From a virus (Duplodnaviria > Caudoviricetes), in the IMG/VR virus record IMGVR_UViG_3300037067_012088, positions 127,388-191,387 of that record: a DNA stretch of 64,000 nucleotides; one strand, written 5' to 3'. Positions within the stretch are counted from its first letter, which is position 1. Each line of letters begins with the position of its first letter. Shown piece by piece: positions 33,078 through 50,410 of the stretch. The notes under the pieces were generated by a model, which was given only the letters and a program-made list of their open reading frames with translations, did not search any database and was not told the DNA's origin. Both the position numbers and the translations under genes were made by a program.

Positions 33078-33106
33078 AATCTAGTGGACTTAGGTGGCCG
33101 TGTCAA
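33078..33106 (-). promoter_or_regulatory. class I promoter TTGACA-N8-TAAG-N5-TAGATT
   Basis: Recurrent motif; ATG 6 nt downstream. Confidence 0.7.
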
Positions 33107-33796: not shown

Positions 33797-34192
33797 GCGG
33801 TTTCCTTCAGCACGACGCGCAGGAACTCGTTCTCCTCGATAATCGCCTTGCGGTAACCCTCGTTCTCGGACATGTCGGCGACTGGCAAGCCAAGGGTCTT
33901 GGCGGCACCGGGGGTCTGCGCGAGATAGGTTTCGTTGTGGGCGAGACGCTGCTTCAGCATGCGGATAAGGAGGGGTGCTTTGATCATGAGAGGGGACTTT
34001 TGGCGTGACGCATATGTTGCCCGTTAGGACAGATGCAGTAATTGAGGCGACCCGCTCTGATGCCTGCGGGCGAGATGGCTGTCAGACGGGTATCGATAAT
34101 CCCGGTATTCCCACATAGGGTGCAAAGACCCAGTCCGCCGGCCGGATAGTAGGCGAACCAATAGTCGGTAACCTTAGCGCACTTGGGCTTAG

Positions 34193-34732: not shown

Positions 34733-35326
34733 AAGCCTCCAACATGGGCGAAAGCCGCTCGGTTCTTGAGGGTGGCACGGAGAGCCTTGTAGGACATCTT
34801 GATTTGGCCGTGCTCGTCGGGTTCAGGGATGCTGTGACTCGCCAACTCGTTCCACGCGCGGTCGTGCATCTCGTGAATCTGCGCGATTTGGGAGTCGATA
34901 TAGCGGGAAGATAGCTTGCGCGGCTTCATTTGGCGCGCTTCTCCAGTCTCATGTCAACATAGCCGCCGTCACAGTAGCAGTATTCACCCTCTGGGTGTCC
35001 AGAGCATCCGCTACTGTAGTCACCGTTAACGACCACCTTGCTCAAGTCCGTCCATCCTTCATCCGCGACCTGATTGAGGAGGTCTTGGAGGGTTTGGCCG
35101 CAGGTTAGATAGACAGCTCGTTTCATACCACCCTCCAATCCTCAACCACTCGCGTCTTCCCGGTAAGGGACCGTTGGTAAATGGCGTAAACATCCCAATG
35201 GGTGTAACCGAACCAGTCGCACTCGATGGTCTTCTCGTGGCGCAGGAAGTCGGCGGACTCAGTCTTCCAGATCTCGCGAGGCGGGAAGAGGAGGGTGCGA
35301 AGGCGGGTGAGCAGGTTCATGAGGTG

Positions 35327-35355
35327 AATATGGAAGGCTTGATGCTGGAGGTCAA
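35327..35355 (-). promoter_or_regulatory. class I promoter TTGACC-N8-CAAG-N5-CATATT
   Basis: Recurrent motif; ATG 6 nt downstream. Confidence 0.7.
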
Positions 35356-37466
35356 GCCGGAATCAGCGTCTTGAGGTTGTCGAGCGTATAGAACGTGCCC
35401 GTCAGCTTCTCTGGCCGGTCAAGGCCGATATAGGTCACGTCACGCGCAGGGGCCTTGTCAACCGAGTAGGTCTTCTTGGCCTTCTTGCGGTATAGGTCGG
35501 TCAACCGACCCATGGTCAGATACTGGCGAGCAATCATCGTCTGCGCGAGGAGAGCAGTCGAGAAACGATTCTGCTCAACCCGGTTACCCCACGGCATACC
35601 CTTGGAGTAGATATCGAGCCACTTAGCTTGCCAGCCATTCTCGCCCTTCATGAACACCATGGGAACACCCACACCATTCTTGTCGCCGCGCAGGGCAAAC
35701 TTGGTCTGGACACTCTTGGCCTCGAAAGGCGCGCCCCTGTTGGATTCCTTGCGCATCATGAAGCCCATAAAGGCCTCCTTACAGGTCGCGAACGGTTCAC
35801 CCGAGTATGCGTTGATGGTCGGGAGCAAATAGACGATGTCAGAGGATAACTGGTTGAGCCGCACATCGATGAACTCGGTCGCGCCGTTGGTCGCGTCCGT
35901 GATATCACCCGAGTGGGTAATAGCACCCGTGCGGAGATGGGTGAATGAAACCTGACCTTTGAACTCAAAGTCCTCATCGAACATGGCGACGGACAGGTCG
36001 TAATCAGTCCGCTCACTGGTCTGATGCCAGTAGATGAAGAACCGCAGAATGTCTTGGGTGTTGTCGAGGGGCAGCACCGATCCGCGAGGAAGCACACGAA
36101 AGCCCTCGCTCTTGGTCTTGTCGGAGAGCGGCACAGCGACTGTTGAGATATCGTCATTGATGACCAGAGTCTCGACGGCGGGAACTCGCTTCTCGATCTC
36201 CTTCCAGATGACGTTCGACAGCGTCTTGATGCGCTTAGGAGACAGGGTATCGACCTTGTTCTCGGTCACATAGCCCTTGCCGGCGCGGTTCACGAAGATG
36301 CGTGAGGCGGGCTTACTGGCGCGATTGTCGAGGTGCTCAGCGAGACTCAGGAGCACACGGCCAGACACGCGACCAACCGTGTCCTTGAGACCAGCGGTGA
36401 CCTTGGTGAACTGAATATCGGTGGCATCCCGGGCCAGCTTGTCGATAGAGCGGACGAAGTAGCCCGGCTTGTCGACGAGGAGATTGACCGCCTTGGTGAC
36501 GCGACCGTTGGACACGGCATCATGGACCTTGGAACCCCACGTGATGTGGTCGGAATTACCGCCCGCGAAATCGAACAGTGCGATGGCCCCTGCAAACTTG
36601 AACTCGCGCGGATGGAGGGATCGAGCCAGCCGCTTGAATCGCTCGCGGTAACGATTGATATCGTCTACCTTATCGGCGACGCCGTTCAGCGCGGCGAGGA
36701 GTTGGCGGCGGATAGGGCGAGAGAAACTCTTGAACTTGGTGTTTTCGAGGAGGGTCACATCACCACCAGACAGGTAGGCAGCAAGACGGAGCACATCAAC
36801 AGGGGTATCCACATCGAGAGGTTGGCCACCCTTCGTGAGACGCAGGGCGTTGATAATAGCCTTGTTCTCTCGGACGGCAATCTTGATATCGGTCACTTCG
36901 TAATCGATATACAGGGCGGCGATGAGCTTTCGGTCATCCTCGTTAAGAGGTATCTTGGAGCCAGCTAGGTCAACGTAAAGCGCCTCAAGCTCCTGACGGA
37001 GTGAGCCACCAAGATTGAGCACCTTCAGCTTGGTCTTGCCGCGCCACGTATCATGGCCCGCGAGCATGTCCTCGTAGATATGCTGGTAGGTCCCGTAGGT
37101 GGCGAAATCGAGCAGGTTGGTAGTTAACTCACCCGTCTCCTCAAAATGCTGCGCGAGAAGGCCACCCCAGAACTCAAGCGTGTCGGGCACATTCTTGGGG
37201 AAGTCCTTGAAGTAGGTATTGTGCTTGACGTGTGCGCCGACCAGTCCCTTGACGGCGGTCAAGATGACGTTGGACACTTCGATGGCTGATTCGAAGGAGG
37301 CACCACCGATGGCCTTGAGTAGCTTACTCGACAGCTTGAAGCCGTTGTCCATCAGGACTGAATCAAGTTGGCGCGCGATAACACGGGAGTCACCCGCGCC
37401 GGCCGGGACCGGAACGACGAGGCGCTTCTGAATGAGCTTGATGACGAGGTGGGTTTGGGTGTTCAT
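35352..37466 (-). CDS. large helical protein with C-terminal TerD domain (possible Ro60/TROVE-like RNA-binding protein)
   Basis: C-terminal TDYDLS..., HSGDITDA.NGATEFIDV and N.YSG..F TerD motifs; about 450-aa alpha-helical N-terminal region with PG.F.R.ID.L.R. Confidence 0.75.
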   Translation of the reverse strand: MNTQTHLVIKLIQKRLVVPVPAGAGDSRVIARQLDSVLMDNGFKLSSKLLKAIGGASFESAIEVSNVILTAVKGLVGAHVKHNTYFKDFPKNVPDTLEFWGGLLAQHFEETGELTTNLLDFATYGTYQHIYEDMLAGHDTWRGKTKLKVLNLGGSLRQELEALYVDLAGSKIPLNEDDRKLIAALYIDYEVTDIKIAVRENKAIINALRLTKGGQPLDVDTPVDVLRLAAYLSGGDVTLLENTKFKSFSRPIRRQLLAALNGVADKVDDINRYRERFKRLARSLHPREFKFAGAIALFDFAGGNSDHITWGSKVHDAVSNGRVTKAVNLLVDKPGYFVRSIDKLARDATDIQFTKVTAGLKDTVGRVSGRVLLSLAEHLDNRASKPASRIFVNRAGKGYVTENKVDTLSPKRIKTLSNVIWKEIEKRVPAVETLVINDDISTVAVPLSDKTKSEGFRVLPRGSVLPLDNTQDILRFFIYWHQTSERTDYDLSVAMFDEDFEFKGQVSFTHLRTGAITHSGDITDATNGATEFIDVRLNQLSSDIVYLLPTINAYSGEPFATCKEAFMGFMMRKESNRGAPFEAKSVQTKFALRGDKNGVGVPMVFMKGENGWQAKWLDIYSKGMPWGNRVEQNRFSTALLAQTMIARQYLTMGRLTDLYRKKAKKTYSVDKAPARDVTYIGLDRPEKLTGTFYTLDNLKTLIPA

Positions 37467-37474
37467 AGATTAAG

Positions 37475-37534
37475 TCGCGGGAGGCACCGATTCTAGGGTT
37501 GCAAAGATAGAAGGAAGAATCGATATGGCCGCGA
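37475..37534 (-). ncRNA. structured repeat RNA, unit 3 (gene-proximal)
   Basis: Closing stem UCGCGG/CCGCGA, inner stem CGAUUC/GAAUCG, CUUCCUUCUA core. Confidence 0.7.
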
Positions 37535-37551
37535 AAGGGTTTGGAAAGGGG

Positions 37552-37626
37552 TCTCCGGTAGGCGCGCAACCTAATATGCAATCCGCCGAAGCGGGTTTAG
37601 AAGGAAGGTCGAGCATGAGCCGGAGA
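37552..37626 (-). ncRNA. structured repeat RNA, unit 2
   Basis: Closing stem UCUCCGG/CCGGAGA, CUUCCUUCUA core, extra UUCG hairpin. Confidence 0.7.
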
Positions 37627-37631
37627 TTATC

Positions 37632-37698
37632 GTGACGGAAGGCGAGATAGCTAGGTTCAGGTAAAGAGTAGAAGGAAGCGGTATCTCATGGCCGTCAC
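37632..37698 (-). ncRNA. structured repeat RNA, unit 1
   Basis: Closing stem GUGACGG/CCGUCAC, inner stem GAGAUA/UAUCUC, CUUCCUUCUA core. Confidence 0.7.
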
Positions 37699-37789
37699 AA
37701 AGTGGAGACTCGTGCGCCGGAGCTTTCCCGGCGCGGAGTAACGAGTCGCAAGAGGATGAAAAGAACAGTGACCTTAATCACTGGAATCG

Positions 37790-37818
37790 ATTGTGCGGGA
37801 CTTGGGGCGACAAGTCAA
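37790..37818 (-). promoter_or_regulatory. class I promoter TTGACT-N8-CAAG-N5-CACAAT, followed by boxA-like GTTCTTT
   Basis: Recurrent motif; positioned to drive the repeat RNAs and the TerD gene. Confidence 0.7.
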
Positions 37819-37839
37819 CACTAAATCGCAAGCGATTTC

Positions 37840-38472
37840 TCAGTTCACGAAATGAAGCTGGCTCGGATGCCTGACATCATTGGCCGTGAGCACTACCTTG
37901 GTGGGCTTGGGCTTCTTGAGCTTGATGTCCCACCCCATCTCGGCAAAGGTGCGCGTTCCCTGAAGTCGATTGAGATCAAGTCTTAACGGAGCGATATTGT
38001 CCCAGTTGCGCCGCCCGCCGTGATGGCGCGCTACGTTATGCCCCATGTCCAACTCCTCGGGCGAAAGACGCTGCTTGGTCGCCTGACAGGTATAGTCGTA
38101 GAGCTTCTTGACGTTGTCGGACGAGAAACGCGGCACCTTGGATGGGATGTCAGCATAAGACGAGGCCACGATGATGGTGGGCAACCGAATCTCGCCGCGC
38201 CCCGTGGTGATGCCCCAGTCGCAGGACCTGACCGGGAGCGTAATCCAAGTGTCGATATCGACCGGGCGCGCGCTAATCAGGACATCGAGATTGTAGGTGC
38301 CGTCTGCATTCTGCTCGAAATCGAGATCGAGCGGCAGGAAGGGCGGCTTACCGGTCTCGGGATTGGCGGAGAAAATATCCTCAAGCGATTTCTTTGGACT
38401 GCGCACATCATAAGCGAACCAGTTCTTGTTAAGAGCCAATACGGTAACGGATTTGTTGAGGATATCAGACAT
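37840..38472 (-). CDS. HNH endonuclease-like protein at the 3' end of the tRNA array
   Basis: VLALNKNW N-terminus; LP.II; LDMGH..ARHHGG..NWDN.......N..QG (degenerate HNH). Confidence 0.7.
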   Translation of the reverse strand: MSDILNKSVTVLALNKNWFAYDVRSPKKSLEDIFSANPETGKPPFLPLDLDFEQNADGTYNLDVLISARPVDIDTWITLPVRSCDWGITTGRGEIRLPTIIVASSYADIPSKVPRFSSDNVKKLYDYTCQATKQRLSPEELDMGHNVARHHGGRRNWDNIAPLRLDLNRLQGTRTFAEMGWDIKLKKPKPTKVVLTANDVRHPSQLHFVN

Positions 38473-38546
38473 GGGAAAGGGAGGTTGAGAACATAACGAG
38501 TTGGGCAAGCCCAGTGGGGGACCTATGCTAGGGTCAAGGGGGAAAA

Positions 38547-38640
38547 TGGACGAGAGAGCGAGATTTGAACTCGCGAACCGGGATGAACCGATTTCTTGCT
38601 TAGCATGCAAGCGCTTTAGGCCAGACTCAGCCATCTCTCG
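38547..38640 (-). tRNA. tRNA-Ser(GCU)
   Basis: Cloverleaf; CUUGC-AU GCU AA-GCAAG; long variable arm; CCA. Confidence 0.85.
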
Positions 38641-38730
38641 GGCGGATAGCAGAGGGCACGATCCCCAGCCGATTTAACGACCCCTTGTTTTCAAGACAAG
38701 TCCCCGCCCATCGCAGGTGCTTTACTATCC
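38641..38730 (-). tRNA. tRNA-Ser(UGA)
   Basis: CUUGU-CU UGA AA-ACAAG; long variable arm. Confidence 0.8.
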
Positions 38731-38734
38731 AAAG

Positions 38735-38814
38735 TGGTGCGAACGAGAGGGGATGATCCTCCATGTGTCCAATTACCCTTTCGCCGGTTTAGGAAACCGA
38801 GGGGATACGTCCGC
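38735..38814 (-). tRNA. non-canonical tRNA-Arg(CCU) with no D-arm before the anticodon arm
   Basis: 7-bp acceptor + ACCA; UCGGU-UU CCU AA-ACCGG; AUCCC/GGGU helix encloses the anticodon arm. Confidence 0.65.
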
Positions 38815-38815
38815 G

Positions 38816-38891
38816 TGGTAGGAGTGGCCGGGTTCTCGCCGACCCTAAGGCGTCCGAAGCGCCCTGTGCGAATACAATACACTACACTCCC
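38816..38891 (-). tRNA. tRNA-Arg(UCG)
   Basis: GGGCG-CU UCG GA-CGCCU; CCA. Confidence 0.8.
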
Positions 38892-38897
38892 ATAAAG

Positions 38898-38971
38898 CAC
38901 CCGTCCTCAGGTTCGAACTGAGACTAATGAGAGGTAGAAGCTCTCGTGACTTTCCAATTGCCGAGACGGGT
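38898..38971 (-). tRNA. tRNA-Arg(UCU)
   Basis: GAGAG-CU UCU AC-CUCUC; canonical T-loop; no CCA. Confidence 0.85.
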
Positions 38972-38975
38972 AAAG

Positions 38976-39051
38976 TGGCGCATGTGGAGGAAGTCGAATC
39001 CTCAACCTCTCGATTCGTAATCGAGCGCTCATCCAGTTGAGCTTCACACGC
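38976..39051 (-). tRNA. tRNA-Arg(ACG)
   Basis: CUCGA-UU ACG AA-UCGAG; CCA. Confidence 0.9.
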
Positions 39052-39055
39052 AAAT

Positions 39056-39130
39056 TGGGGTAAGTAGCGAATTCTGCCATCGCGTTCTGCGCGCCACAAG
39101 CGCATGTCTTCCTTCTAGACGATACCTACC
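39056..39130 (-). tRNA. tRNA-His(GUG)
   Basis: G-1:C73; UGCGC-UU GUG GC-GCGCA; CCA. Confidence 0.85.
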
Positions 39131-39138
39131 ATGAAATG

Positions 39139-39221
39139 AGCAGTAAGAGGGACTCGCACCCCCGATGAGCTTTCGCTGCGTGCTTACAAAACACGTCCTG
39201 TCGCTTCTGAGGCATTACTGC
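39139..39221 (-). tRNA. tRNA-Thr(UGU) with long variable arm
   Basis: CGUGU-UU UGU AA-GCACG; extra arm AGC-GAAA-GCU. Confidence 0.75.
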
Positions 39222-39229
39222 ATGAAATG

Positions 39230-39298
39230 AGCCAACTGCCGGTGCGGCCCCGGCTTCCTACTCATTACGGGTGAGTGGGGATTGCTGAATCAGTTGGC
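39230..39298 (-). tRNA. tRNA-Thr(CGU) with truncated D-arm
   Basis: ACUCA-CC CGU AA-UGAGU. Confidence 0.7.
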
Positions 39299-39299
39299 A

Positions 39300-39390
39300 T
39301 GGTCGTCCCGCTCGGTGCTGCCCCGAGTCACGGCCCAAATCTAGGACACAAGGAGGTATAAGCTCCTCAGGGAGGCTGCTCCACGAGACG
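39300..39390 (-). tRNA. non-canonical tRNA-Ile(UAU)
   Basis: GAGGAG-CU UAU AC-CUCCUU; mini D hairpin; long extra arm; ACCA. Confidence 0.65.
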
Positions 39391-39396
39391 ACAAAA

Positions 39397-39487
39397 TGGT
39401 GCAAGAGGTGGGCCACGATCCCACACGGGGCTTTCGCCACCCAACGATTTTGAATCGTCGCTGTATGCCAATTCCAAGCACTCTTGC
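39397..39487 (-). tRNA. tRNA-Leu(CAA)
   Basis: GACGA-UU CAA AA-UCGUU; long variable arm; CCA. Confidence 0.85.
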
Positions 39488-39493
39488 GTAAAA

Positions 39494-39578
39494 TCGACGC
39501 GGTGGGGTATGCTCCCACAATCCCTCTCGGGCCAACAGGTTTAAGCTGCTGCTGTATTCTGGTTCCAAGCACGCGTCG
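39494..39578 (-). tRNA. tRNA-Leu(UAA)
   Basis: AGCAG-CU UAA AC-CUGUU; long variable arm. Confidence 0.8.
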
Positions 39579-39583
39579 GAAAT

Positions 39584-39658
39584 TGGCGGCCCCACGGAGA
39601 GTTTCGCTCGCGATGTCCAACTTGAGAGGTTGGCAGACTAATCTTATCTGATGGGGCC
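39584..39658 (-). tRNA. tRNA-Glu(CUC)
   Basis: CCAAC-CU CUC AA-GUUGG; irregular T-stem; CCA. Confidence 0.75.
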
Positions 39659-39660
39659 AT

Positions 39661-39744
39661 TGCGTTCGGTGGGCAACGATCCCACATGAGCTTTCGCCCC
39701 TTGGTTTCTAAGACCAAGCTGTAAGCCAATTCCAGCACGAACGC
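39661..39744 (-). tRNA. tRNA-Leu(UAG)
   Basis: UUGGU-CU UAG AA-ACCAA; long variable arm. Confidence 0.85.
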
Positions 39745-39750
39745 GTAAAA

Positions 39751-39833
39751 TGGTGGGAGCGGCGAGCCACGACCTCGCAATCCTTGCGGCGGCAGACTCT
39801 CGATCTGCTGGGTATACATTCCCCCACGCTCCC
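39751..39833 (-). tRNA. tRNA-Leu(GAG)
   Basis: GCAGA-UC GAG AG-UCUGC (C33); CCA. Confidence 0.8.
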
Positions 39834-39835
39834 CT

Positions 39836-39908
39836 AGCCTGAGACGGGGCTCGAACCCGTTACCCTCCCCTTACCAAGGGGTAATTCAACCACATGAACT
39901 TCACAGGC
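39836..39908 (-). tRNA. tRNA-Thr(GGU)
   Basis: CCCC-UU GGU AA-GGGG; canonical T-loop. Confidence 0.8.
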
Positions 39909-39912
39909 AAAA

Positions 39913-39985
39913 TGGAAGTAGATCCCGGTGCTGCCCCGGGCTAGTGGTCCTTATGAGAGACTACTGATCGGCTGGATCATCTACC
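39913..39985 (-). tRNA. tRNA-Met/Ile2(CAU) with short D-arm
   Basis: GUCU-CU CAU AA-GGAC; CCA. Confidence 0.7.
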
Positions 39986-39986
39986 G

Positions 39987-40061
39987 TGGTGGTCCCGTAG
40001 GAAATCGCATCCTCCTCATCCGATTAAGAGTCGGAGTCCTCGCTATCTAGGAGTCGAGACC
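39987..40061 (-). tRNA. tRNA-Lys(CUU)
   Basis: UCCGA-CU CUU AA-UCGGA; CCA. Confidence 0.8.
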
Positions 40062-40068
40062 ATAAAAT

Positions 40069-40140
40069 CTGCCCCACCCCGATTTGCACGAGGACCTAAC
40101 ACTTTCAGAGAGTGTCGGACTGCTATTATCCCATGAGGCA
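40069..40140 (-). tRNA. tRNA-Gln(CUG)
   Basis: ACACU-CU CUG AA-AGUGU; U1-A72. Confidence 0.8.
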
Positions 40141-40149
40141 TCAACAAAG

Positions 40150-40234
40150 CCGGGGCGACACGGTTCGAACGTGCAAAGTCTTGCGACCGGTAGGGTCAAA
40201 GCCTACTGCGTTTATCCAGTTCCGCCACACCCCA
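40150..40234 (-). tRNA. tRNA-Gln(UUG) with long variable arm
   Basis: GUAGG-CU UUG AC-CCUAC; extra arm GGUC-GCAA-GACU; Leu/Ser-like D-arm. Confidence 0.8.
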
Positions 40235-40242
40235 AAAATCGC

Positions 40243-40890
40243 TCAACACGGCACCGGCGTCCATCCCTCAAACACGACCCGCACCACGCCGCCCGGTGAA
40301 CTCGCGGGTCTCTGCACATTGCAGATGGGTGAATCATTGGCATACTCAGGATGGGTTCCTACGCACTCGGGGGGCGAAACTGACGCCGTGCAGTTGTCGC
40401 ATCCATATGGATAGACGCCGACCAAATCCGTGTTCTCATATCGCGTGCTGTTGCGTATCTTCTTCACCGCAATCACGCCGCCGTTTGCGGTCCAGTCGTC
40501 CGAACTCAAATCAAACCCGAGATAAGCATTCGCACCGCAAACGCAGCTGATGTCTACCGTCTCCTGTCCGCCTGATTGGAATCCGTTGTTGAGGATAAAC
40601 TCGGCCAGCGCGACGCCCTCGGGCCAATCGGGACACGGGCAATTCAGAGGAGGAGTGCCAAAGGAGAGGTTACCGTTGAAGCCCAGTCCCGCAGGAGCGT
40701 CAATCGAGACCGTCGTGGTCGCCGGTAAAGTGAAGTTGCCCATGAGCGGGTAGAGCTTGTTGATGACGATGCCGTCACTGACTGTGATATCGGATACGTC
40801 TTGCACGCAACCGGGCGTGGCGCCAAGAGTGATGTAAGCGAGAACGGGGGAAGCGGAGTTGTTGCGGAGAGCGAGTTTGGTGGTAGGCAT
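40243..40890 (-). CDS. thaumatin-like (PR-5 fold) Cys-rich protein
   Basis: GVALAEFILNN....ETVDISCVCGAN resembles the thaumatin TLAEFTL...YDVSLVDG.N signature; about 10 Cys. Confidence 0.6.
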   Translation of the reverse strand: MPTTKLALRNNSASPVLAYITLGATPGCVQDVSDITVSDGIVINKLYPLMGNFTLPATTTVSIDAPAGLGFNGNLSFGTPPLNCPCPDWPEGVALAEFILNNGFQSGGQETVDISCVCGANAYLGFDLSSDDWTANGGVIAVKKIRNSTRYENTDLVGVYPYGCDNCTASVSPPECVGTHPEYANDSPICNVQRPASSPGGVVRVVFEGWTPVPC

Positions 40891-40895
40891 AGTAG

Positions 40896-40906
40896 AGGAT
40901 ACACCG
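40896..40906 (-). promoter_or_regulatory. class II promoter-like motif CGGTGTATCCT
   Basis: 5 nt upstream of the ATG; shared GGTGTAT core. Confidence 0.45.
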
Positions 40907-40957
40907 GGAAGAAGCCCCCTTCCTCTCTGTAACACAAATCGTTGACACTCAACAAAA

Positions 40958-41033
40958 TGGCTGCCGCCCACAGGATCGAACTGTGCTCATCGGATTAACA
41001 GTCCGACCGGGTCTCCCTGACTCGCTGACGGCA
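40958..41033 (-). tRNA. tRNA-Asn(GUU)
   Basis: UCGGA-CU GUU AA-UCCGA; CCA. Confidence 0.85.
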
Positions 41034-41039
41034 ATAAAG

Positions 41040-41117
41040 TGGTGGAAAAGGCTGGCTTCGATCCAGCGACCTTCGTGGTGTAGGCACGTTGCTCTAACCT
41101 GACTGAGCTACTTTTCC
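41040..41117 (-). tRNA. tRNA-Val(UAC)
   Basis: CGUG-CC UAC AC-CACG; CCA. Confidence 0.85.
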
Positions 41118-41118
41118 A

Positions 41119-41193
41119 TGGCGGTGCTACGGAGTATCGCGCTCCGATCACGAGATCGACAATCTCGCGCTCTCCTACTTGAGCTATAGCACC
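41119..41193 (-). tRNA. tRNA-Asp(GUC)
   Basis: CGAGA-UU GUC GA-UCUCG; CCA. Confidence 0.85.
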
Positions 41194-41199
41194 AAAGTG

Positions 41200-41281
41200 T
41201 CCGAGCGACACGACTTGCACGTGCAGAGGTTGCCCACTGAGTCCCAAACTCAGCCCGCTCCTATTTACGGTATACGCTCGG
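41200..41281 (-). tRNA. tRNA-Pro(UGG) with enlarged variable arm
   Basis: CUGAG-UU UGG GA-CUCAG; C1-G72, A73. Confidence 0.75.
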
Positions 41282-41299
41282 ATAGCGCTAACTAAACTG

Positions 41300-41370
41300 A
41301 TGCAGAGGTGGGATTTGCACGCCACTAACGGCGACGGGTATGAGCCGCGCTTGGTTCTAACCTCCCTGCG
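41300..41370 (-). tRNA. initiator-type tRNA-Met(CAU) with minimal D-arm
   Basis: C1:A72 mismatch; GCGG-CU CAU AC-CCGU. Confidence 0.7.
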
Positions 41371-41375
41371 TAAAA

Positions 41376-41454
41376 TGGCCCTGACTCCCGTGGCTTGCAC
41401 CGGGCACCTCCGAGTCTTCAGCTCGGCGCTCTACATCTAATGAGCTAAGTCAGG
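41376..41454 (-). tRNA. tRNA-Phe(GAA)
   Basis: CCGAG-CU GAA GA-CUCGG; CCA. Confidence 0.8.
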
Positions 41455-41455
41455 A

Positions 41456-41596
41456 TGAAGAGGCCTTTCACCTCATGGGTCGCTTTGGGCGACTCTGCCT
41501 CTCTGGGATGGTGACTCCGTGTCAGTCATTCATCTTGGGAGGACCTTGCTTGAGATATCCCACTCGTTTGACACGACGGTCAGGAGATATCTTAAA
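41456..41596 (-). ncRNA. unassigned structured RNA between tRNA-Trp and tRNA-Phe
   Basis: Several nested hairpins in a 141-nt spacer; most other spacers are under 10 nt. Confidence 0.45.
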
Positions 41597-41671
41597 TGGC
41601 CCCGGGTGCTGGGAGCGCGCCAGCCCGACAACTTTTGGAGAGTCGTCCGAACACTAGATCGTCTACCCGGG
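41597..41671 (-). tRNA. tRNA-Trp(CCA)
   Basis: CGACU-CU CCA AA-AGUUG; G73; CCA. Confidence 0.8.
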
Positions 41672-41676
41672 AAAAT

Positions 41677-41747
41677 TCCTCCTATCTGGTGCTGCCCCAG
41701 AGTCTCACGCCTATCAAGCGCGCTATCTACTGTTGATATATAGGAGG
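41677..41747 (-). tRNA. tRNA-Ile(GAU)
   Basis: CGCGC-UU GAU AG-GCGUG; acceptor CCUCCUA/UAGGAGG. Confidence 0.8.
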
Positions 41748-41753
41748 GTAAAA

Positions 41754-41842
41754 TGGGGGAGCCCGCTGGAATCGCGCCAGTTGCTAGCTTCTCGTCTTTG
41801 GGTTAGCGGTGAGGTTACAACTCACTGACGAGGACGGTCTCC
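41754..41842 (-). tRNA. non-canonical tRNA-Tyr(GUA) with no D-arm before the anticodon arm
   Basis: GUGAG-UU GUA AC-CUCAC enclosed by a CUCGUC/GACGAG helix; T-arm; CCA. Confidence 0.65.
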
Positions 41843-41844
41843 AT

Positions 41845-41918
41845 TGCACCATGAGAGACGTGCGCTCTCCCCTCCGAGGTGGAAGCTCGGCATGCTCGCT
41901 ATTGGACACTAATGGTGC
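41845..41918 (-). tRNA. tRNA-Gly(UCC)
   Basis: CCGAG-CU UCC AC-CUCGG. Confidence 0.8.
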
Positions 41919-41924
41919 GAAAAT

Positions 41925-41996
41925 TGGAGGATGCCGTAATCGAAACGGCGACTGTCGGGTGCAGGCCGACCGTGTTACCACTAGCACCAATCCCCC
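41925..41996 (-). tRNA. tRNA-Ala(UGC)
   Basis: G3:U70; GUCGG-CC UGC AC-CCGAC. Confidence 0.85.
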
Positions 41997-42003
41997 TGAA
42001 AAA

Positions 42004-42079
42004 TGGACACGCGTGTGGAACTCGAATCCACGACCTAGTGCTTTGCAGACACCGCTCTTAGCCGCTTGAGTAACGCGTG
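42004..42079 (-). tRNA. tRNA-Cys(GCA)
   Basis: GGUGU-CU GCA AA-GCACU; U73; CCA. Confidence 0.9.
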
Positions 42080-42088
42080 AGGTGAAAA

Positions 42089-42164
42089 TGGTGGTCCCAG
42101 CGGAAGTCGAATCCGCAACTCGCGACTTAAAAGGACGCTACTCTACCAATTGAGTTATGAGACC
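42089..42164 (-). tRNA. tRNA-Lys(UUU)
   Basis: Canonical D and T arms; CU UUU AA loop; CCA. Confidence 0.9.
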
Positions 42165-42171
42165 GTAAAAT

Positions 42172-42243
42172 CGCCCGCACGGAGAATCGAACTCCGGTTT
42201 CAACCTTGAAAGGGTTTTGTCACTACCACTAGACGATGCGGGC
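42172..42243 (-). tRNA. tRNA-Glu(UUC)
   Basis: AACC-CU UUC AA-GGUU; canonical T-loop. Confidence 0.9.
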
Positions 42244-42250
42244 ACAAATA

Positions 42251-42386
42251 TGCGGGAGGTTGGTTCGGGTTCTCGTGGCCTACGATTCCCGGCTCACGGT
42301 GGTTCCTCCCCCACCGACCGGGTTTACGTTATCCCGGTAACGTCCAGCCTCACTGGATAGAATGGCGGCCCGTTGACTTACCCGCG
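42251..42386 (-). ncRNA. multi-hairpin structured RNA, unassigned
   Basis: Closing GCGGG/CCCGC; internal stems UCCAG/CUGGA, CGUUA/UAACG, CGGUGG/CCACCG. Confidence 0.45.
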
Positions 42387-42495
42387 CTTTGGAGGCTTGG
42401 GTCCCCTCTGGTTGGAAACCCCACACGGGCCAAGGTGGGTTAGGGCGGAGGGTATTGTATTTGACATGGTGCCGGACTGATCCGGTCCAAATGAA

Positions 42496-42615
42496 TTGCG
42501 GGTCAGGCTTGATTCTGACTATGGCATACTGCGGAGTCGAACCGACAGAGGCATTCCCGGCTGCCACGCCACCTCTCTGCTTTCAGTATCGCGTGTCCAA
42601 TCCACGCCGCCGCAA
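42496..42615 (-). ncRNA. tRNA-elbow-like ncRNA, copy B
   Basis: 5' GCGGCGUGGAUUGGACACG ... 3' AGUCAGAAUCAAGCCUGACC, shared with 43497-43653. Confidence 0.65.
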
Positions 42616-42829
42616 ATTGAATCACTCGGTGGCTCGGGGAACACCACTACTTGGCCTAGGGGCCGTGCTTTTTGCACCCGATAGCCCTAATCACAATGTC
42701 AGGGCCTACATAAGCTACGAGCAGAGTGAATCCCTCAAGACAGTTGCCATCGCTGGCCTCGCAGTGCATCCCGAGTCGCCTCGGGGGCGTCCAGATTGGT
42801 TACTGGATATCCTGTTCCATATTGGGAAT

Positions 42830-42947
42830 TGGTCGCTCTCAAGGATTTTCACCTCATCTCGGCTTTATCGGTGCCTCGCTTTCGGGTCCTCGTGAACCGG
42901 GCCGTTCATGACACGAGTCACTACTTGGCTCCTTAAGCTATCGAGCG
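42830..42947 (-). ncRNA. CCA-ended tRNA-like RNA with a large insert replacing the anticodon arm
   Basis: CGCUC/GAGCG + ACCA; UAGCUUAAGGAGC D-like arm; GAGG-UGAAAAU-CCUU T-like arm. Confidence 0.5.
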
Positions 42948-42953
42948 GTAAAT

Positions 42954-43049
42954 TGGTCCGGGCGGAGACTTTAGATCCCTCTCTCGGCTACACCCACACA
43001 CGGTTCCTCTAGAGTCTTGTGTGTGGTATCTGGCCTGCTTCTTGCCCGA
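42954..43049 (-). ncRNA. CCA-ended tRNA-like RNA with a long central helix
   Basis: UCGGGC/GCCCGG + ACCA; CCACACAC/GUGUGUGG stem. Confidence 0.45.
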
Positions 43050-43302
43050 CAAAAGTGTCCGAGGCGCACGCCCTCGGGCGCCCGCGTTTACGGGGTTGAC
43101 CGAAATGAATCACCGTCGTCCGAACTACGACATATCGGACTCTTGTATCCCATTTGTAACTGTCAGCGCTGGGAGGTTGTGGCATGTCCGCTGCCCCTTA
43201 CTTGAACACCCCGAGCTTGCGACCCCGGGTGGTCTTTCGACCCATCGCTAAACGAGTCAATTTGTGGGACGGACTAACGGTAAAGTGAAAGAACTGATAC
43301 CC

Positions 43303-43331
43303 ATCTTGCTCGACTTGGGTTCCAACGTCAA
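43303..43331 (-). promoter_or_regulatory. class I promoter TTGACG-N8-CAAG-N5-CAAGAT, followed by boxA-like GTTCTTT
   Basis: Recurrent motif; internal promoter of the RNA operon. Confidence 0.7.
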
Positions 43332-43496
43332 GCGAAATCTGTGCCCACCCGGGAGCGTCCGATTCTTTGGACAACTCAACCGGGTGGGTCTTAACGAACT
43401 AACTACCTCATCTTAGCGTCCGCGCGGGCTTGAGCCCGACTTGCATATCATCTACTAGCCTCTACCCTAGCATCCCGGCATGTGGTCCGGGAAAGT

Positions 43497-43653
43497 GATG
43501 GGGAAGACCGGATTTGATTCCGACTCTGTGCTTCCTGACGGGCTCGACCCGCATGGCCCAACGTGATGCTGCTAACTCACGCCGCTATGCACAAACGCGG
43601 TTGGGTTGTTGCGCCTGCCCCGAAACGTGTCCTTCCACGCCGCTTCCTCCATC
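43497..43653 (-). ncRNA. tRNA-elbow-like ncRNA, copy A
   Basis: 5' GCGGCGUGGAAGGACACG ... 3' AGUCGGAAUCAAAUCCGGUC; closing GAUGG-AGGAAG/CUUCC-CCAUC. Confidence 0.65.
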
Positions 43654-43860
43654 AAGGTCATAAAGTGATTAAGCTGGCCGCGAGCGTTAGCTCATCGGTT
43701 ACGCCGTTTAGGGCCGCCAGCTTTGGTGAGGGATACTCACCGTATTTCCTCTCAAACCGTCGATGTCTCCACCAACGTAAAGTCGCACCGAGTTAGCGGG
43801 GCCGTGCTCGCCCTGTTCCTGCCTACTTGATATGCCGCCGGGGTCATTGGCGGTTTTCGT

Positions 43861-43874
43861 TATGTCAAAGATCG
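43861..43874 (-). promoter_or_regulatory. boxA-like antitermination element CGATCTTTGACATA
   Basis: Resembles boxA of stable-RNA operon leaders; sits at the head of the ncRNA cluster. Confidence 0.45.
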
Positions 43875-43981
43875 TCTCCGAAATCGGGGGTTCGGCATTT
43901 AAGCCTACTGACCTCTGGAGAAAGTGTAATCATTCTGCTGTATGTCCTCGAAACCACCTTAGAAACGGTGTATTCTAAGAC

Positions 43982-44506
43982 ATGGAATGTCGTATTTGTC
44001 ACGAAGAAAAAGAACTCACTGAATTCAAGAAAAAGTCGGGAGGATATGACACGATATGCAAGGTTTGCTATGCTCCCTTGAACAGGGAATACAATCGTCA
44101 ATACCACAAAACGTTCAAGGGGTGGATAAGAGTTTCTTGGTCGAGAATGAACATCCGTGCTGGAAATCGGGGTAATAAATATCCAACCTATACTCATGTA
44201 AAGGTCTTAATGACCAGAGAAGAATTTGTAGCGTGGGCTCAACCCCAAGAGCCAATATGGCGCGGTATTAAAGAATCTAATGATTCCCCAACCATCGACA
44301 GAATAGACCCTGATGGACACTATGAAATATCGAACATTCAGATCCTAAGCCTACGAGAAAATTCCTCCAGAAACACCGGAAGACATCTGCGAACTCCTGA
44401 GGCTCTGGTTAGACACATAGTGGCTATGGCCAAAAAACTAAACATTTCACTATCTACCGTAGCAGAATTGATTATCAAAGAACAAGTGGATTGCTCCACA
44501 AAATGA
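43982..44506 (+). mobile_element. free-standing HNH homing endonuclease gene
   Basis: CRIC..K....F...CKVC zinc finger; PTIDRIDPDGHYEISNIQ....EN..N; AT-rich and on the opposite strand. Confidence 0.8.
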
Positions 44507-44540
44507 TAAGGCCGACCTCGTTTTTGGGAGAGCCGGCCTA
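44500..44540 (-). terminator. attenuator/terminator hairpin
   Basis: AGGCCGGCUCUC...GAGGUCGGCCU followed by UAUCAUUUU; may also terminate the convergent HNH gene. Confidence 0.6.
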
Positions 44541-44565
44541 AGGTTAACTAACTGACTTAAATCCC

Positions 44566-44694
44566 TTAGATGGGCTCTCCTGTTTGGGTTTCGGGATTAC
44601 GTCCAAACCACATGGACACGCAATACCGTAAACCCGCGACTTGCGCTTTGGCGCTTGTCAGGATATCTGATATTGGATGAATGGATCTGGACAT
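44566..44694 (-). CDS. putative 42-aa attenuator leader peptide
   Basis: MSRSIHPISDILTSAKAQVAGLRYCVSMWFGRNPETQTGEPI; GGAGAGCC in its last codons is complementary to the terminator 5' arm. Confidence 0.55.
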   Translation of the reverse strand: MSRSIHPISDILTSAKAQVAGLRYCVSMWFGRNPETQTGEPI

Positions 44695-44712
44695 GGAAGA
44701 GAGGGAAGGGGG

Positions 44713-44838
44713 TTAGAGAACTAGGCCTAGGATTAGGCCACCTAATCCCGCAGCAACAACCCAAACGGCGCTAACTTGCTTGGCCTTGAGGGTGGCATAG
44801 ACGGCGGAAATGGAGGCTTTGATGGATGAGGTGGACAT
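44713..44838 (-). CDS. 41-aa single-TM peptide
   Basis: MSTSSIKASISAVYATLKAKQVSAVWVVAAGLGGLILGLVL, read by hand. Confidence 0.5.
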   Translation of the reverse strand: MSTSSIKASISAVYATLKAKQVSAVWVVAAGLGGLILGLVL

Positions 44839-44859
44839 GATGGAAAGGTGGTTCAAGAG

Positions 44860-44886
44860 ACGATACACCGGAAACGAGGGCGTTTA
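44860..44886 (-). promoter_or_regulatory. class II promoter-like motif TAAACG-N5-GTTT-N-CGGTGTAT
   Basis: Near-identical to the dps upstream motif. Confidence 0.55.
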
Positions 44887-44896
44887 CCAATGAATC

Positions 44897-47800
44897 TTAC
44901 TCTACCCCTATCATACCCGACTTGGATTCAATGTCAACTGCTTTCTTGAGGTATCTCACATTATTCTTCTCCCACATCCTTAGATACCTCTCTTTATCCT
45001 CTCTCCCCATTCCCGTATACGCCATCATGGCATCCACGAAGCCGTTCTCCCGTATCGAATTGCGTATCTTGAACAGTGCTCTCAGGTAAACCCGACTACA
45101 CCGTGAGTCGCGCCCATGAAAAGGACCCCAGTAAGAGGTTACGATGGTGTGACGGAGCGGCAAAAACCACCCCATGCCCATGGACCAGTATTCGGCCATC
45201 TCTTGCCAAAGGGATTGAATCGTTATCTCGTATCCCCACTTCGCGCCGAAAAGGGGCTCGGCCAGCACCGACTCCGCCTCACTCAACTTGGCCTTCCCAT
45301 AGGTCTCGCTTTTCTTGAAGGCTTTCCATGCGGCGTCAGTCAACACGTAGTTGGGCCAGCGGGCATCGCGGTCGATGAACTGGTCGAAATGGGCTCGAAG
45401 CTGGTCGTTCTTCTTCACCCCTTCCTCCACTTCGTCCGCCACAATATCAGGAACACTACCGCGAGCAGAATCACGCCATAACTGGCGGGTTCGGGGACTT
45501 TTGGCCCATGCCCCTTGGACTCGTAAGACTGGAAGGCGTCGGTTTGGGCTAAAGTCACAGCGGGTTCTCCCCCAAGAACTCGCTCAACTCCTCCAGCGTG
45601 AACGAATCAACCCAAGTGGCGCCGGTATTGGTCAGATAGATGGCCTCTACGTTCCGGCTATCAAATCTCAGGGCGAGGATCGCGTTTCCGCGACAGAACC
45701 GCTTCTCAAACGCCTCGCTCCGCGCCCAGATGGCATCCTCTACCTTGCGCAGGTCAACGGATAGGGTGGCGAGAGCTTGGTTCACATAACCTCCACGCGT
45801 TTAACCCATTTGGTTCCGTTGAACTGATAGGGTGATCCTCTGAACGTGAGAGCGGCCATCAAGGCGTTCGTTATCTCCGCTTCTGTCACCGAACTGAGAG
45901 ACCACCATTTTCTCTTAGTAACCTCCTTCACTTCTCCGAACGCCCCATGTCGCGCCCAAATGGTCAAGACATACTCGCCAAGAGAATCACTGGTCGCAGA
46001 CTTGGGAGAAACGATACCGAATCCCCACCGAATGGCTCGTTCGGGGCCGGCTCCCTGACGCCCGGTATAGTATGCGTGGGGCTTCTCGGGGAGATAGCGG
46101 TCCATGATACTCTTGATTAGGGATAGCGTCTGCTCGATGGTAATAGGCTGAGGAGCCTTTACTTGGTTGGGGGATCTCATGTCGGACAAGGCTAAGGGGC
46201 TTTGGCAAGATAGTCAACCACAGACTGCATGATACGCCGATAAAGGGTCTGCCCCTTCTCGCGGATCGCCGGATTGCGGCTAAAGGAAGCTTTGAGCACC
46301 AGAACGTGGTCGCGCGATTTGGTGACGTGCGGCTGAGCTAACATGCGATCACACTCGGATTCGAGGACCTCGTCGGTGAGGGTATCAGGTAATGGCTCCA
46401 CGGGTCTTCCTTAGGGACTTGAATAGCACTCGGGCATATCGCTTGAGTAACACCTCGGCGCGCGGCAAATCGCACCACGACCAACCGGGATAGGATTCGT
46501 CACCTCGTTCGCTGGGATACTTCTTCTTGATTCGCGCCCTAGCCTCGCCAACACACGCGGCTCGCTTACTGAGGTAGTGTCGGCGTGCCGTGGGCGCATA
46601 CCAGACCAGATGAGTGCGGGGCTCGATGTGACTCATGAAATCTGCCCTCGATATAGATGGAGATTGGTCTCCTTAAGATAGGCGTCTCGCTCGGTGTCGG
46701 ACAACCCCATGAGCCACCCCAACCACTCGTGAACCTGTCTCTTCAGCTCGGCGTCAATGGGGCCGAAATCGATGCCGCCATATTCGTTGTGCGGGGCTAA
46801 GAAGGGAGCCGTCCAGCTGGTCTGCCAGATCGTGCGGTTCTGATAGTAGGCGCGTAACATGCCGATATAGGCATTGGACAGTCCGATATCATGTTTCTTG
46901 AGAAAGGTCCATTGCGCAGGCGTAACCTCGTGGGTCTCGATAATCATCTCCTCCATTGTAGGCCACTTCATGGTTCGTTCTCCCACTCATACTCCCACAT
47001 CTCCTCACGTCCATCGTCCTGAATGTCGTCACATATCCCGCCCGCTAACACGCCATCGCATGGTCGGCATCCTGCGCAGTGGCAGAAGGCCAGCATGCTC
47101 TCCACGAAAGCCTCATATTGGATGGACTCGGAGGGGTCTAGCGGTTCAGGGTCTGGGTTCACGGTGGATTCGCTCATCAATGATGTGGATTAAGGTGTCG
47201 GCGTCGATATACTTCTCGTCTTCGGGTTTGAGGTCAGAAAGGGGTCCGGCATCGCTCCACTTCATGTCGTGGAACTGCTTGGTCAACCAATTGAGTCGCG
47301 TCTCCATCTCCTCCGCCCGCTCGCGCCACGAAATGCTCACATTCCCGTTGTCGCTCTTCTCGGTCTGATACCAGATGTCGGACTCCTTGTCGCGGTTCTC
47401 GGCAAAGAGGCGGAGATGGTCGGCCAGCAGCCACTTGATATCCTCGATGGCCTGCGTAACACCACCGTTGATGGCGTAACCATCGCACCACGTCTTGAGT
47501 CGCTCAGTCACCTGCATCGTCTTCATGAACTCATGGTCGTCGGCGCGCTTGAGGGGCTGCGGCAGGTTGTGGTAGGGGTTGTCGCGGATGTGAGCGACGA
47601 TCTCAGAGAGGCTCATGGTAGATTCAACGGATGAGGTTTATTGTCGCGTTCATGGCGCGGCAGAATGGGAACCCACGTCTTAGCAGCCTTGTCCCACGCC
47701 AGATTGATGATAGTAGGCATGGCATCGAGATCGCGCAGATTCAGGAGGCGACGTTCCTCCACGGGATAGGATAATCCACCATAGGCCTTCATCCACGCAT

Positions 47801-50410
47801 CGTTGGTCTGCTGGTTGTGGTGACGGTCGTAGAGGATGATCTCAAGTCCATCATCGGACCCAACGCTGACCGCGCGCACCGTGAAGAGGTCGCCCTTGGA
47901 GTCAGCAATGACCTCGTTAGCGAAGGCGTTGAGAAAGGCCTGCTCGATGAAACGGTTGACGGTGTAGCTCATGTCTCGTTGGCCTGTTCGGTATCCTCGT
48001 TCATCTCCATGTCTATCTGCTCCATCATCTTGAGATAGGCCTCTTCACCCATCTCGCGGCGACAACGCTCCTCGGTCTCGGCCATAGCAAGGTTAATCTC
48101 GTGAACGAGAGCCAGATTCGGTTCCGTGCGTAAGGTGTGACCGGGAGTGGCCATTAGGGGATCAGTCATAAGCCAAGGGGCGACGGGTCGCGCATAGTGG
48201 TGCCCTCAAGGAAGGTCATGTAATCACCCTCGTCGCGTTTCATGAATCGTTCGCAGATGCAACACCGGGGTGGCCATTCGCCCGCTCCGTGAACGGGGCA
48301 CTTCTCATCGGGTTCGTCGGCGGTGATGCCGCAAACACAGGTCTTGGACTCGACACAGATGTGAGGCTTCATGTCAGTAGTAGACCCGCACGGTCGCCGG
48401 TTTGCGCGGCGGGAAGGAATAGGAGAGCGTGATACTCAGCTTAAGCCATTTGGCGGTGACATCCCAACTCGCGCCGTAATGGACCACGTCAGGTTGGTCA
48501 GGAAGCGAAATGCCTCTCTTGGCAATCCCCGGCTCCCGATACTCGACGCGCAGATAGGGGATGACATCCCAATGTGGGTAATCCGACAGATAGGAACTGA
48601 GTCTCCAGCGTGAATCGGGTTTCATGTTACCTCCTCGTCGGTAACGGCATTAAGTCGCTCCATCAACTCGTCTACCGTCACCCCCGATTGGTAGAGCAAG
48701 TCCGTTGTGTGGCCACACGGGTCCGCTTCCCCCGTGATCTTGTAGGCCTCTTCTTCGAGGTCTTCGATACGCTCAAACAGAGTGCGGGCCTCGCGGCGGA
48801 TGGCTTCGAGACGCAGGAGTTGGGTGTCGGTGAGGGTGATCATTGAGAGAATGGGACAATCGCTTTGTGGGCATACGCCTCAGCACTCCCGAGTCTGCGA
48901 CCCGCGAGGAAAGCCTTCTTGAGCAGCCGGTCCATCTGGGCGGACTGCCACTGGCTTAGATGACGGATGCCTTCTTGGCGACGATACCATTTGGCGAAAG
49001 ACTGTGAGGGAGGCGTCATTGGCGACTCCTCATCGCGGCGCGAATGGCCTCACGCGCATCATGATAGCACTTCTGTGGGTAGCCTTCCGCTGGCACGGCA
49101 CCGTTGCTATCGTCATCGAGATCGTGCGCGAACCACACATTGCACACCTCTCCATCGCGACTGTGAGACAGGTAGGCACTGTGGGCGATAAGCCAATTGA
49201 GGAGGTCGGTGTCAGTGGGGATAGACATAGGAAGGCTCAGTCTAGATAACAGGGCAACGTCTTTTCGTGTGCTCTCACTTCGACGCGGAACGCTTCGTCA
49301 TTCTGACGCCCAAGACGCTGAGCAATGGCGTCAAGGGCTCTTCCATAAAGCTCGGGTGAAATAGCGAGAACCCCACCGAGATGGGTTTCGTATGCCTTGG
49401 CGAGCGAATCAATGTGAGTGAGCATAAATCAGTCTCTCCACATATCATGCGGACCAGCCCGGTCGCGCCGATCAAGTTCCTCCATGCGCGCGTCATAACG
49501 GGCACGGGAATCTTCTTCGCGGAGGGTGGAGGCTTCGTTCAGGTCGCGGTCAAACTCGGGGTCGGCAGTCATGTCGATTCCTCATCGATAATGATCAACT
49601 CGTCATTGGGCTCCCACGGACACACACTGCGCAGCCAAATGTGATGGGTTCCGTCCAGCGGCACCCAACCCTCTTCGTCGCACGGTGCTTTCCCGTTGAG
49701 AATGATATAACGCGTCAACATGATAAGCCAAGCGGTCAGATGGCTACCTTGGGCCTGCTCCAATCGACTTTCCCAGCCCGACCAGAACTCGACCATGTCC
49801 GTGAGCGCAACCTGCGAGGTGATGGTGTCGGTAATCTCGACGCGCGCGATAACGATATCGTCGTAGGAGAGGTTGTAGATCATGGCTTCAAGAACTCTTC
49901 GGTGTTGACGACCATCTTGGCCGGGCAACCCAGCGCCTCAATCTGCTTGAGTGACGAGGCGCGAGAGGCTTCCTGTTTGGCGTAAACTGCCTGACGAGAC
50001 CGAAGTTGCGGATAGGGATGGGATTCGATGGCTTGCTTGAGATGACGGCTATCTTGTAGCCCATTCATTGGGATTCGTGAACCTTGGATGACAACGACAA
50101 TATCGGACACCTGAGGTTTGATGTCTGACACGCCAGTCTTGGGGCAACAAGACTCTTGAAGGCTAATTGAGACGCCAAGGTCACGATGGGTCAATGTGAC
50201 GGACCACGAAAAATACTCTCGGGTCCCCCAACTGGCCTCTGCCTTGCGCGTCCGACTCACCTTCCACCCCTTCCCGTCAATCCATGCTTGGGCGATTCCC
50301 TTGATGAGACAGGAGGGTTCGGACGGCGGAAGAGGTGCCTCTACCTTGGTCTCTGGAAGACCGGAGGGGTTCGGCGAGAACAGGGACTTGAGCCATTTGA
50401 TGGGATTCAT
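44897..50410 (-). other. run of about 18 small hypothetical genes (e.g. 44897-45442, 45782-46189, 46633-46986, 47146-47616, 47613-47972, 48622-48843, 49569-49928, 49880-50410)
   Basis: ORF track; coupled minus-strand ORFs. Confidence 0.6.

Follow-up and report, generated by a model that had tools for sequence, protein, structure and literature searches.

Phages can carry large sets of tRNA genes, and the locus studied here raises the question of whether such a set can be placed under the control of translation itself, through a leader peptide that draws on every amino acid. The window, by which we mean the whole stretch of 64,000 nt that was analysed, is the final 64 kb of a 191,387-bp IMG/VR virus record and has a GC content of about 56%. 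The genes surrounding the leader are carried on the minus strand, with a block of small protein genes on one flank. The initial annotation, made from the sequence alone, had described an open reading frame (ORF) of 42 codons at 44694-44566 that encodes all 20 amino acids by means of 33 distinct codons, among them ATT, ATA, ATC, AGA, CGG, TTA and GGA, and had read it as the leader of a pan-amino-acid attenuator. The ORF, its residue set and its codons all held. The attenuator reading was also supported, in that its testable predictions at the level of sequence held in 10 homologous loci. Our conclusion, for which the evidence is favourable without being decisive, is that a ribosome-mediated pan-amino-acid attenuator heads a phage ncRNA and tRNA operon; that the leader is translated and the terminator read through is inferred. 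The features of the locus are collected in Table 1.

Table 1. Features of the leader cassette and of the region downstream, in window coordinates.
Feature	Position	Strand	Remarks
Sigma-70-type promoter heading the cassette, TTGACA-16-TATGAT	44910..44937	-	11/12 matches
GTGTATC motif in the 5' untranslated region, about 25 nt 5' of the first ORF of the cassette	44862..44868	-	8/10 loci
ORF for a small tail-anchored membrane peptide, 41 codons, end ...GLVL*	44713..44838	-	Between promoter and leader
Leader ORF, ATG...TAA, 42 sense codons, all 20 amino acids	44566..44694	-	Homologues in 9 more loci
Antiterminator 5' strand: GGAGAGCC (44580-44573) and CUAAGG (44569-44564, stop codon inside)	44564..44580	-	Free-RNA MFE fold
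Antiterminator 3' strand: CCUUAG (44543-44538) and GGCUCUCC (44534-44527)	44527..44543	-	Overlaps the terminator 5' arm
Intrinsic terminator: hairpin 44539-44509 (AGGCCGG.../...UCGGCCU, -17.6 kcal/mol) and tail UAUCAUUUU	44500..44539	-	
boxB-like hairpin GUGGAGCAAUCCAC and boxA-like UGUUCUUUGA (resembling an rrn-type antitermination site)	44475..44499	-	
HNH/endonuclease VII-type gene, convergent with the leader transcript	43982..44506	+	PHROG endonuclease VII E 6e-17, HNH E 3e-9
First conserved domain of the ORF-free structured RNA	43740..43926	-	Conserved in 7 loci
tRNA array, presumed regulated product, first gene tRNA-Glu(UUC)	38547..42244	-	

Searches of phage databases for near and distant relatives gave no match to the window phage. 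Ten distinct cassette loci were compared, namely the window and nine more from metagenome contigs. The relatives were contigs carrying homologues (57-78% identical) of the 181-aa gene that adjoins the cassette, one match to an ncRNA pattern and one match to a peptide profile; amino-acid content played no part in the choice of any of the 10 loci. A related-locus search with the 181-aa neighbour and a three-leader alignment as queries returned none, and the peptides are too short for tblastn. Scans with DNA patterns gave one genuine extra locus, L012. The remaining pattern matches (L020-L027) were chance occurrences, with no leader there.

An ATG-started leader ORF of 41-54 codons was present at all ten loci. 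When the window was aligned with L004, every indel within the leader ORF was a multiple of three, and dN/dS in the leaders was mostly 0.3-0.6, indicating purifying selection on the frame. Identity among the leader peptides ranged from 15 to 74%, with L002 and L007 at 15-30% and L012 at 15-47%.

In a single genome, the presence of all 20 amino acids in a peptide of this length is not significant. Among 42-aa windows taken from this genome's long ORFs, 0.8% have all 20 residues; the figure for random peptides is about 1%, and 6 of 934 six-frame ORFs of 35-60 aa hold the full set. Across the ten loci, nine leaders had all 20 residues, also when the initiator Met was excluded; the L002 leader lacks only Asp and has the other 19. 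About eight residue types are single-copy in the leader, and there are no runs of one codon type. Because the ten leaders are related, the leader statistics depend on a short alignment and on a tree that is only approximate, a maximum-identity spanning tree. In the null model, leaders were joined by this tree, residues shared with the neighbour were kept and differing positions were redrawn. Between 3.4 and 3.6 complete leaders of 9 were expected under the null, and the probability of at least 8 of 9 being complete was 7e-5 with a proteome background, 2e-5 when redrawing was BLOSUM-conditioned and 8e-6 with the composition of the family. Not one of 20,000 within-column shuffles, a control that ignores relatedness, gave 9 complete leaders (maximum 7).

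The alignment revealed how completeness is preserved. The residues C, W, H, Y, F, N and D mostly occur once per leader, and one that is lost from its usual place is present elsewhere in the same leader. The positions of W, D, H, Y and the internal M differ between leaders: relocated W residues are found in HTWDS (L012), ALWSY (L002) and GSWAF (L007), a relocated D is found in ISDIL in the window leader, and the internal Met of the window leader precedes WF, not NPE. The set is thus kept complete despite divergence because single-copy residues relocate rather than vanish. Furthermore, in eight of nine leaders the set is completed 9-25 nt 5' of the strand that we describe below as the antiterminator 5' strand. 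The gap is usually 12-15 nt, which is about the distance of one ribosome leading edge. We conclude that selection maintains a complete amino-acid set in the leaders; this is shown by sequence and comparison, within the limits of the approximate tree.

As regards codon diversity, the 33 distinct codons of the window leader place it in the top 2% of coding windows, yet this is what the peptide predicts (32.4 expected). Summed over the ten leaders, there were 372 distinct codons against 338 +/- 6 expected from the peptides; in this test the codon usage of the window was applied to all loci, and the leaders are related.

The leader is followed by an intrinsic terminator and can pair with it. The initial annotation had placed a hairpin about 26 nt 3' of the stop codon, and had noted complementary octamers, GGAGAGCC at 44580-44573 and GGCTCTCC at 44534-44527, together with a weak U-tract; all three claims held, the hairpin at 44539-44509 and the tail as TATCATTTT. 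Terminators were present at all ten loci, with stabilities of -12 to -18.5 kcal/mol, at least 7 uninterrupted stem pairs (counted by a base-anchored script) and a T-rich tail. Only in the window genome was the U-tract weak. Across the ten loci, compensatory changes were found at stem positions 2, 3, 5, 6, 7 and 8, and the distance from stop codon to stem was held at 26-31 nt.

The free leader RNA of the window folds with a z-score of -5.15, and this fold includes the antiterminator helix. The antiterminator duplex has a stability of -26.2 kcal/mol as compared with -11.2 +/- 2.9 kcal/mol for shuffled sequences, and none of 2000 shuffles was as strong. The duplex spans the entire 7-nt 5' arm of the terminator, of which 5 nt are paired in the fold. 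Among the loci, pairing of the last part of the ORF with the 5' arm of the terminator takes two clearly distinct forms in sequence: class A, in which GGAGAG... pairs with ...CUCUCC and CUAAGG with CCUUAG, and class B, in which GUCGAGAAG pairs with CUUCUCGAC. Cognate and within-class duplexes had stabilities of -20 to -30 kcal/mol, and duplexes of class A with class B only -8 to -17 kcal/mol. The duplex was stronger than shuffled controls in nine of the ten loci (p <= 0.013); L007 carries a third pairing sequence with a marginal duplex (p 0.06). MAFFT leaves the three helix classes out of register, and RNAalifold applied to the entire element therefore gave no usable consensus. No convincing conserved 1:2 helix (anti-antiterminator or pause helix) was found; the only candidate from RNAalifold is a weak helix of 4 bp, CUUC/GGAG, that joins the antiterminator strand to the start region. 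The AGGAG at the end of the ORF was also considered as a Shine-Dalgarno sequence for a gene downstream. This was rejected, as no start codon follows, class B lacks AGGAG and the genes of this phage have no Shine-Dalgarno signal.

Both conformers were examined by folding the leaders through the end of the terminator with ribosome-covered bases masked (constrained MFE), and the predicted fold flipped with the position of the ribosome. With the ribosome absent, or stalled at codon 10, the antiterminator formed in nine of ten leaders, with zero terminator pairs. With the ribosome at the set-completing codon, it formed in seven of nine. With the ribosome at the stop codon, the full terminator formed in all ten. 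At L003, the MFE favours the terminator in every ribosome state. Mutual exclusion of terminator and antiterminator, conserved among the loci, is therefore shown by sequence and comparison, as a thermodynamic prediction only. Since no convincing conserved 1:2 helix was found, untranslated RNA is predicted to read through, unlike that of trp.

This behaviour admits a more general interpretation. The element could be a translation-status attenuator, in which any slowing of the ribosome opens the antiterminator and the 20-residue set is incidental or secondary; its triggers would include fewer ribosomes, blocked initiation or elongation, or shut-off by phage or host. In its favour, the switch needs merely a delayed or absent ribosome, with free RNA predicted to read through, and leader-ORF attenuators that sense translation inhibitors are known, as in vmlR and tylosin-induced yxjB (PMC9226507, PMC6851288). 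We regard this as possible. It leaves unexplained, however, the presence of all 20 residues in nine of ten leaders at 15-74% identity (P about 1e-5 to 7e-5), the relocation of single-copy residues and the completion of the set just 5' of the antiterminator strand.

A second alternative is that the leader encodes a nascent peptide that arrests its own ribosome, as in TnaC or SecM, with ligand- or factor-dependent stalling setting the switch. Most leaders do have a W-F-x-x-M-N-P-E core just 5' of the antiterminator strand. This core is nevertheless lost in L002, L007 and L012 (in which W has moved) while the switch is retained. The conserved C-terminal GEPI/GESV is found because the RNA helix is encoded there, and to our knowledge the leader peptides contain no recognised arrest motif. 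We consider peptide arrest very unlikely.

Immediately 3' of the terminator, the initial annotation had noted a boxA-like element. This held, with TGTTCTTTGA at 44484-44475 and a small hairpin just ahead of it at 44499-44486. At every one of the ten loci the terminator is followed by GTTCTTT, which in four of them has a covarying hairpin on its 5' side. On the basis of its resemblance to rrn leaders and the boxA consensus, UGUUCUUUGA is what we take to be boxA; there are no Nus-factor binding data. The pattern YGTTCTTTGR has 3 copies in the whole 191-kb genome. The other two lie outside the window, at genome positions 114452-114461 (minus strand) and 116365-116374 (plus strand), and one of these outside copies is at an ORF-free transcript that the initial annotation had called antiterminated.

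Directly 3' of the boxA-like site is an HNH gene that runs antisense to the transcript leading from leader to tRNAs, and its final 10 or so codons overlap the boxA and boxB-like hairpin on the opposite strand. The hairpin that we assign to the attenuator might then serve only to terminate this convergent gene, a possibility that would have refuted the attenuator reading. It was checked against L004, and was not borne out. In L004 the gene is missing, and leader, terminator, boxA and ncRNA follow one another without a break. This shows the HNH gene to be a later insertion, and terminating it is not the hairpin's sole role. The GC content of the gene is 45%, as compared with 56%.

Past the HNH gene, the transcript would enter an ORF-free structured RNA that reaches to about 42250 and resembles the large phage RNAs found beside tRNA arrays (PMC12286853). 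RNAalifold gave 22 pairs in its first conserved domain, 14 of them with compensatory changes. This domain has an invariant UCUUUGACAU and a GGAGAC hairpin loop, and more conserved blocks lie at 43495-43375 and 43099-43058. Rfam gave no family match for the ORF-free RNA, which matched neither GOLLD nor ROOL. At L008, an ORF-free segment (2997-3095) matched the Rfam DUF3800-VII RNA with a score of 38.1, just over the gathering score of 36.2. A permuted tmRNA at about 43486-43858, suggested by ARAGORN in relaxed mode, was rejected: it has no Rfam match, its tag region is unconserved and the standard tmRNA of relatives is elsewhere. That standard tmRNA lies 5' of the cassette in L003 (3310-3703) and L005 (285-679; Rfam, 62-77 bits). 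An Rfam search of window positions 30000-50000 for tmRNA found none.

The presumed product of the switch is the tRNA array. The initial annotation had counted 34 tRNAs and called the set complete, and neither claim was confirmed by ARAGORN or Rfam. ARAGORN found 17 tRNAs by default, and with a relaxed threshold the minus-strand count was about 24, covering 15 amino acids; Rfam found about 15. Seven or eight window tRNAs were detected only at the relaxed ARAGORN threshold. Over-long tRNAs were seen in the window, L003, L005 and L013 (Thr 84 nt, Gln 86, Lys 85-93, Trp 86-87, Ala 86). Arrays on the same strand as the leader were found in every locus that extends far enough. Those of L003, L004, L005 and L013 open with Glu-Gly-Lys at 750-1500 nt past the leaders, and Cys is fourth in L003, L005 and L013. 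In the window, the distance from leader to first tRNA is 2.3 kb, a span taken up by the convergent endonuclease gene and by about 1.7 kb that lacks ORFs, and a conserved terminator-like hairpin at 43077-43059 lies between switch and tRNAs. It is possible that this hairpin, together with internal promoters if they exist, uncouples the switch from the tRNAs.

At the other end of the cassette, a TTGAC[AG]-N16-18-TAnnnT site was found 88-260 nt 5' of the leader ATG in eight of ten loci. The ORF for the membrane peptide (41-60 aa) was present in six (the window, L002, L003, L004, L007/L006 and L011), and was missing from L008/L009, L012 and L013. It was considered as a second all-20 leader and rejected, having only 14-15 residue types. 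Searches of Pfam and PHROGs gave no match for leader, membrane peptide or neighbouring genes. In the window, the stop codon of the membrane peptide is 18 nt 5' of the leader ATG, so that reinitiation could supply the leader with ribosomes. Over the whole genome, Shine-Dalgarno sequences are not enriched where long ORFs begin, and positions -1 to -3 there are rich in C; the host therefore probably initiates without Shine-Dalgarno pairing.

These flanking features bear on a third alternative, in which the leader is an ordinary small-protein gene with its terminator, the pairing is a 3'-end structure that affects mRNA stability, and the RNAs downstream have promoters of their own. Several observations could be read in this way. 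The frame is under purifying selection and one segment of the peptide, YSCPVWFRSMNPE, shows good conservation at five loci; the membrane-peptide ORF precedes the leader in 6 loci; and the sequence TTGACG-N17-CAAGAT, which the initial annotation had claimed as an internal promoter at 43331-43303, is present, although it was not picked up by our promoter scan. Against this, peptide identity falls to 15-30% (L002, L007) while the ORF, its length, the spacing from stop to terminator and the switch are all retained, and no protein family matches the leader peptide. Pairing that abolishes the terminator whenever no ribosome is there is a design for regulation, not for stabilisation, and the all-20 statistics also oppose this alternative. 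We consider it unlikely. In our weighing, none of the three rivals, whether translation status, peptide arrest or a small-protein gene, explains the conserved completeness of the amino-acid set.

We return to the pan-amino-acid attenuator, which we propose would work as follows. A transcript would start at the sigma-70-type promoter and, in this phage, would encode the membrane peptide first and the leader next. The last codons and stop codon of the leader would form the antiterminator 5' strand, and the 3' strand would hold the terminator 5' arm. When translation proceeds smoothly to the stop codon, the ribosome would hide the 5' strand, the terminator would fold and transcription would end. 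When the ribosome is delayed upstream or is absent, the antiterminator would form first and RNA polymerase would read on, past the boxB/boxA-like site and the structured ncRNA and into the tRNA genes. Given that at least one codon for each amino acid, internal Met included, lies 5' of the antiterminator, any shortage of a charged tRNA should delay the ribosome and raise the supply of tRNAs. The predicted net effect is a loop in which supply follows demand across the whole tRNA pool.

Parts of this model remain inferred. Translation of the leader has only indirect support, from conservation of the frame and a dN/dS below 1, and an adequate delay at single hungry codons and readthrough as far as the tRNAs are inferences. 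Since there is mostly one codon per amino acid, as compared with the runs found in classic attenuators, the response to a mild shortage may be weak. The physiological trigger is likewise inferred, the candidates being starvation, a mismatch in codon usage and cleavage of tRNA by host nucleases. The connection with anticodon-nuclease defence drawn in the initial annotation is pure inference. A bolder version of the model holds that the leader is a 20-valent sensor of charged tRNAs that also samples isoacceptors, repeated residues being encoded by different synonymous codons. Loss of a single tRNA, for example to an anticodon nuclease, would then call up replacement tRNAs and, with boxA and the structured RNA, the whole would form a translation-repair operon. 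We consider this version less likely than not.

The rationale for phage tRNA sets and the manner of their expression are debated, with codon compensation and escape from tRNA-cutting defences both proposed (PMC10264068, PMC11555353). A full-text search, within the library that it covered, found no paper linking leader peptides to tRNA arrays. If the model is correct, a leader that reports on 20 aminoacyl-tRNAs would make phage tRNA supply a regulated, demand-driven process, would widen the reach of attenuation, classically one to three amino acids, to all 20, and would constitute a compact natural sensor of translation stress.

The general model of ribosome-mediated attenuation (PMC1183508) provides the closest comparison. 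Like trpL, hisL, pheL, leuL, thrL and the multivalent ilvGMEDA leader (Ile/Leu/Val), the phage element has a short leader ORF and an intrinsic terminator. As in these attenuators of amino-acid operons, the last part of the ORF supplies the antiterminator 5' strand, which would be masked by a ribosome that has reached the stop codon, and a stall upstream is predicted to give readthrough. Unlike them, the phage leader has no run of codons for a single amino acid and instead has about one codon for each of the 20. It is also longer (41-54 codons), no conserved 1:2 helix was found, its presumed targets are phage tRNA and ncRNA genes rather than biosynthetic enzymes, and its terminator is followed by an rrn-like boxB/boxA site. 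In the boxB-boxA elements of rRNA operon leaders, which load NusB/NusE, a long untranslated operon likewise opens with a hairpin and then (U)GUUCUUUGA; the phage site, at which Nus-factor binding is only conjectured, differs in lying 3' of the attenuator and not directly after the promoter. A further likeness is to vmlR and yxjB of B. subtilis and to attenuation of the ermK type, where slowed translation leads to readthrough into a gene that restores translation (PMC9226507, PMC6851288). In those systems drug-bound ribosomes stall at specific peptide contexts and resistance proteins are controlled, whereas in the phage leader the feature under selection is the complete amino-acid set and the product would be the tRNA pool.
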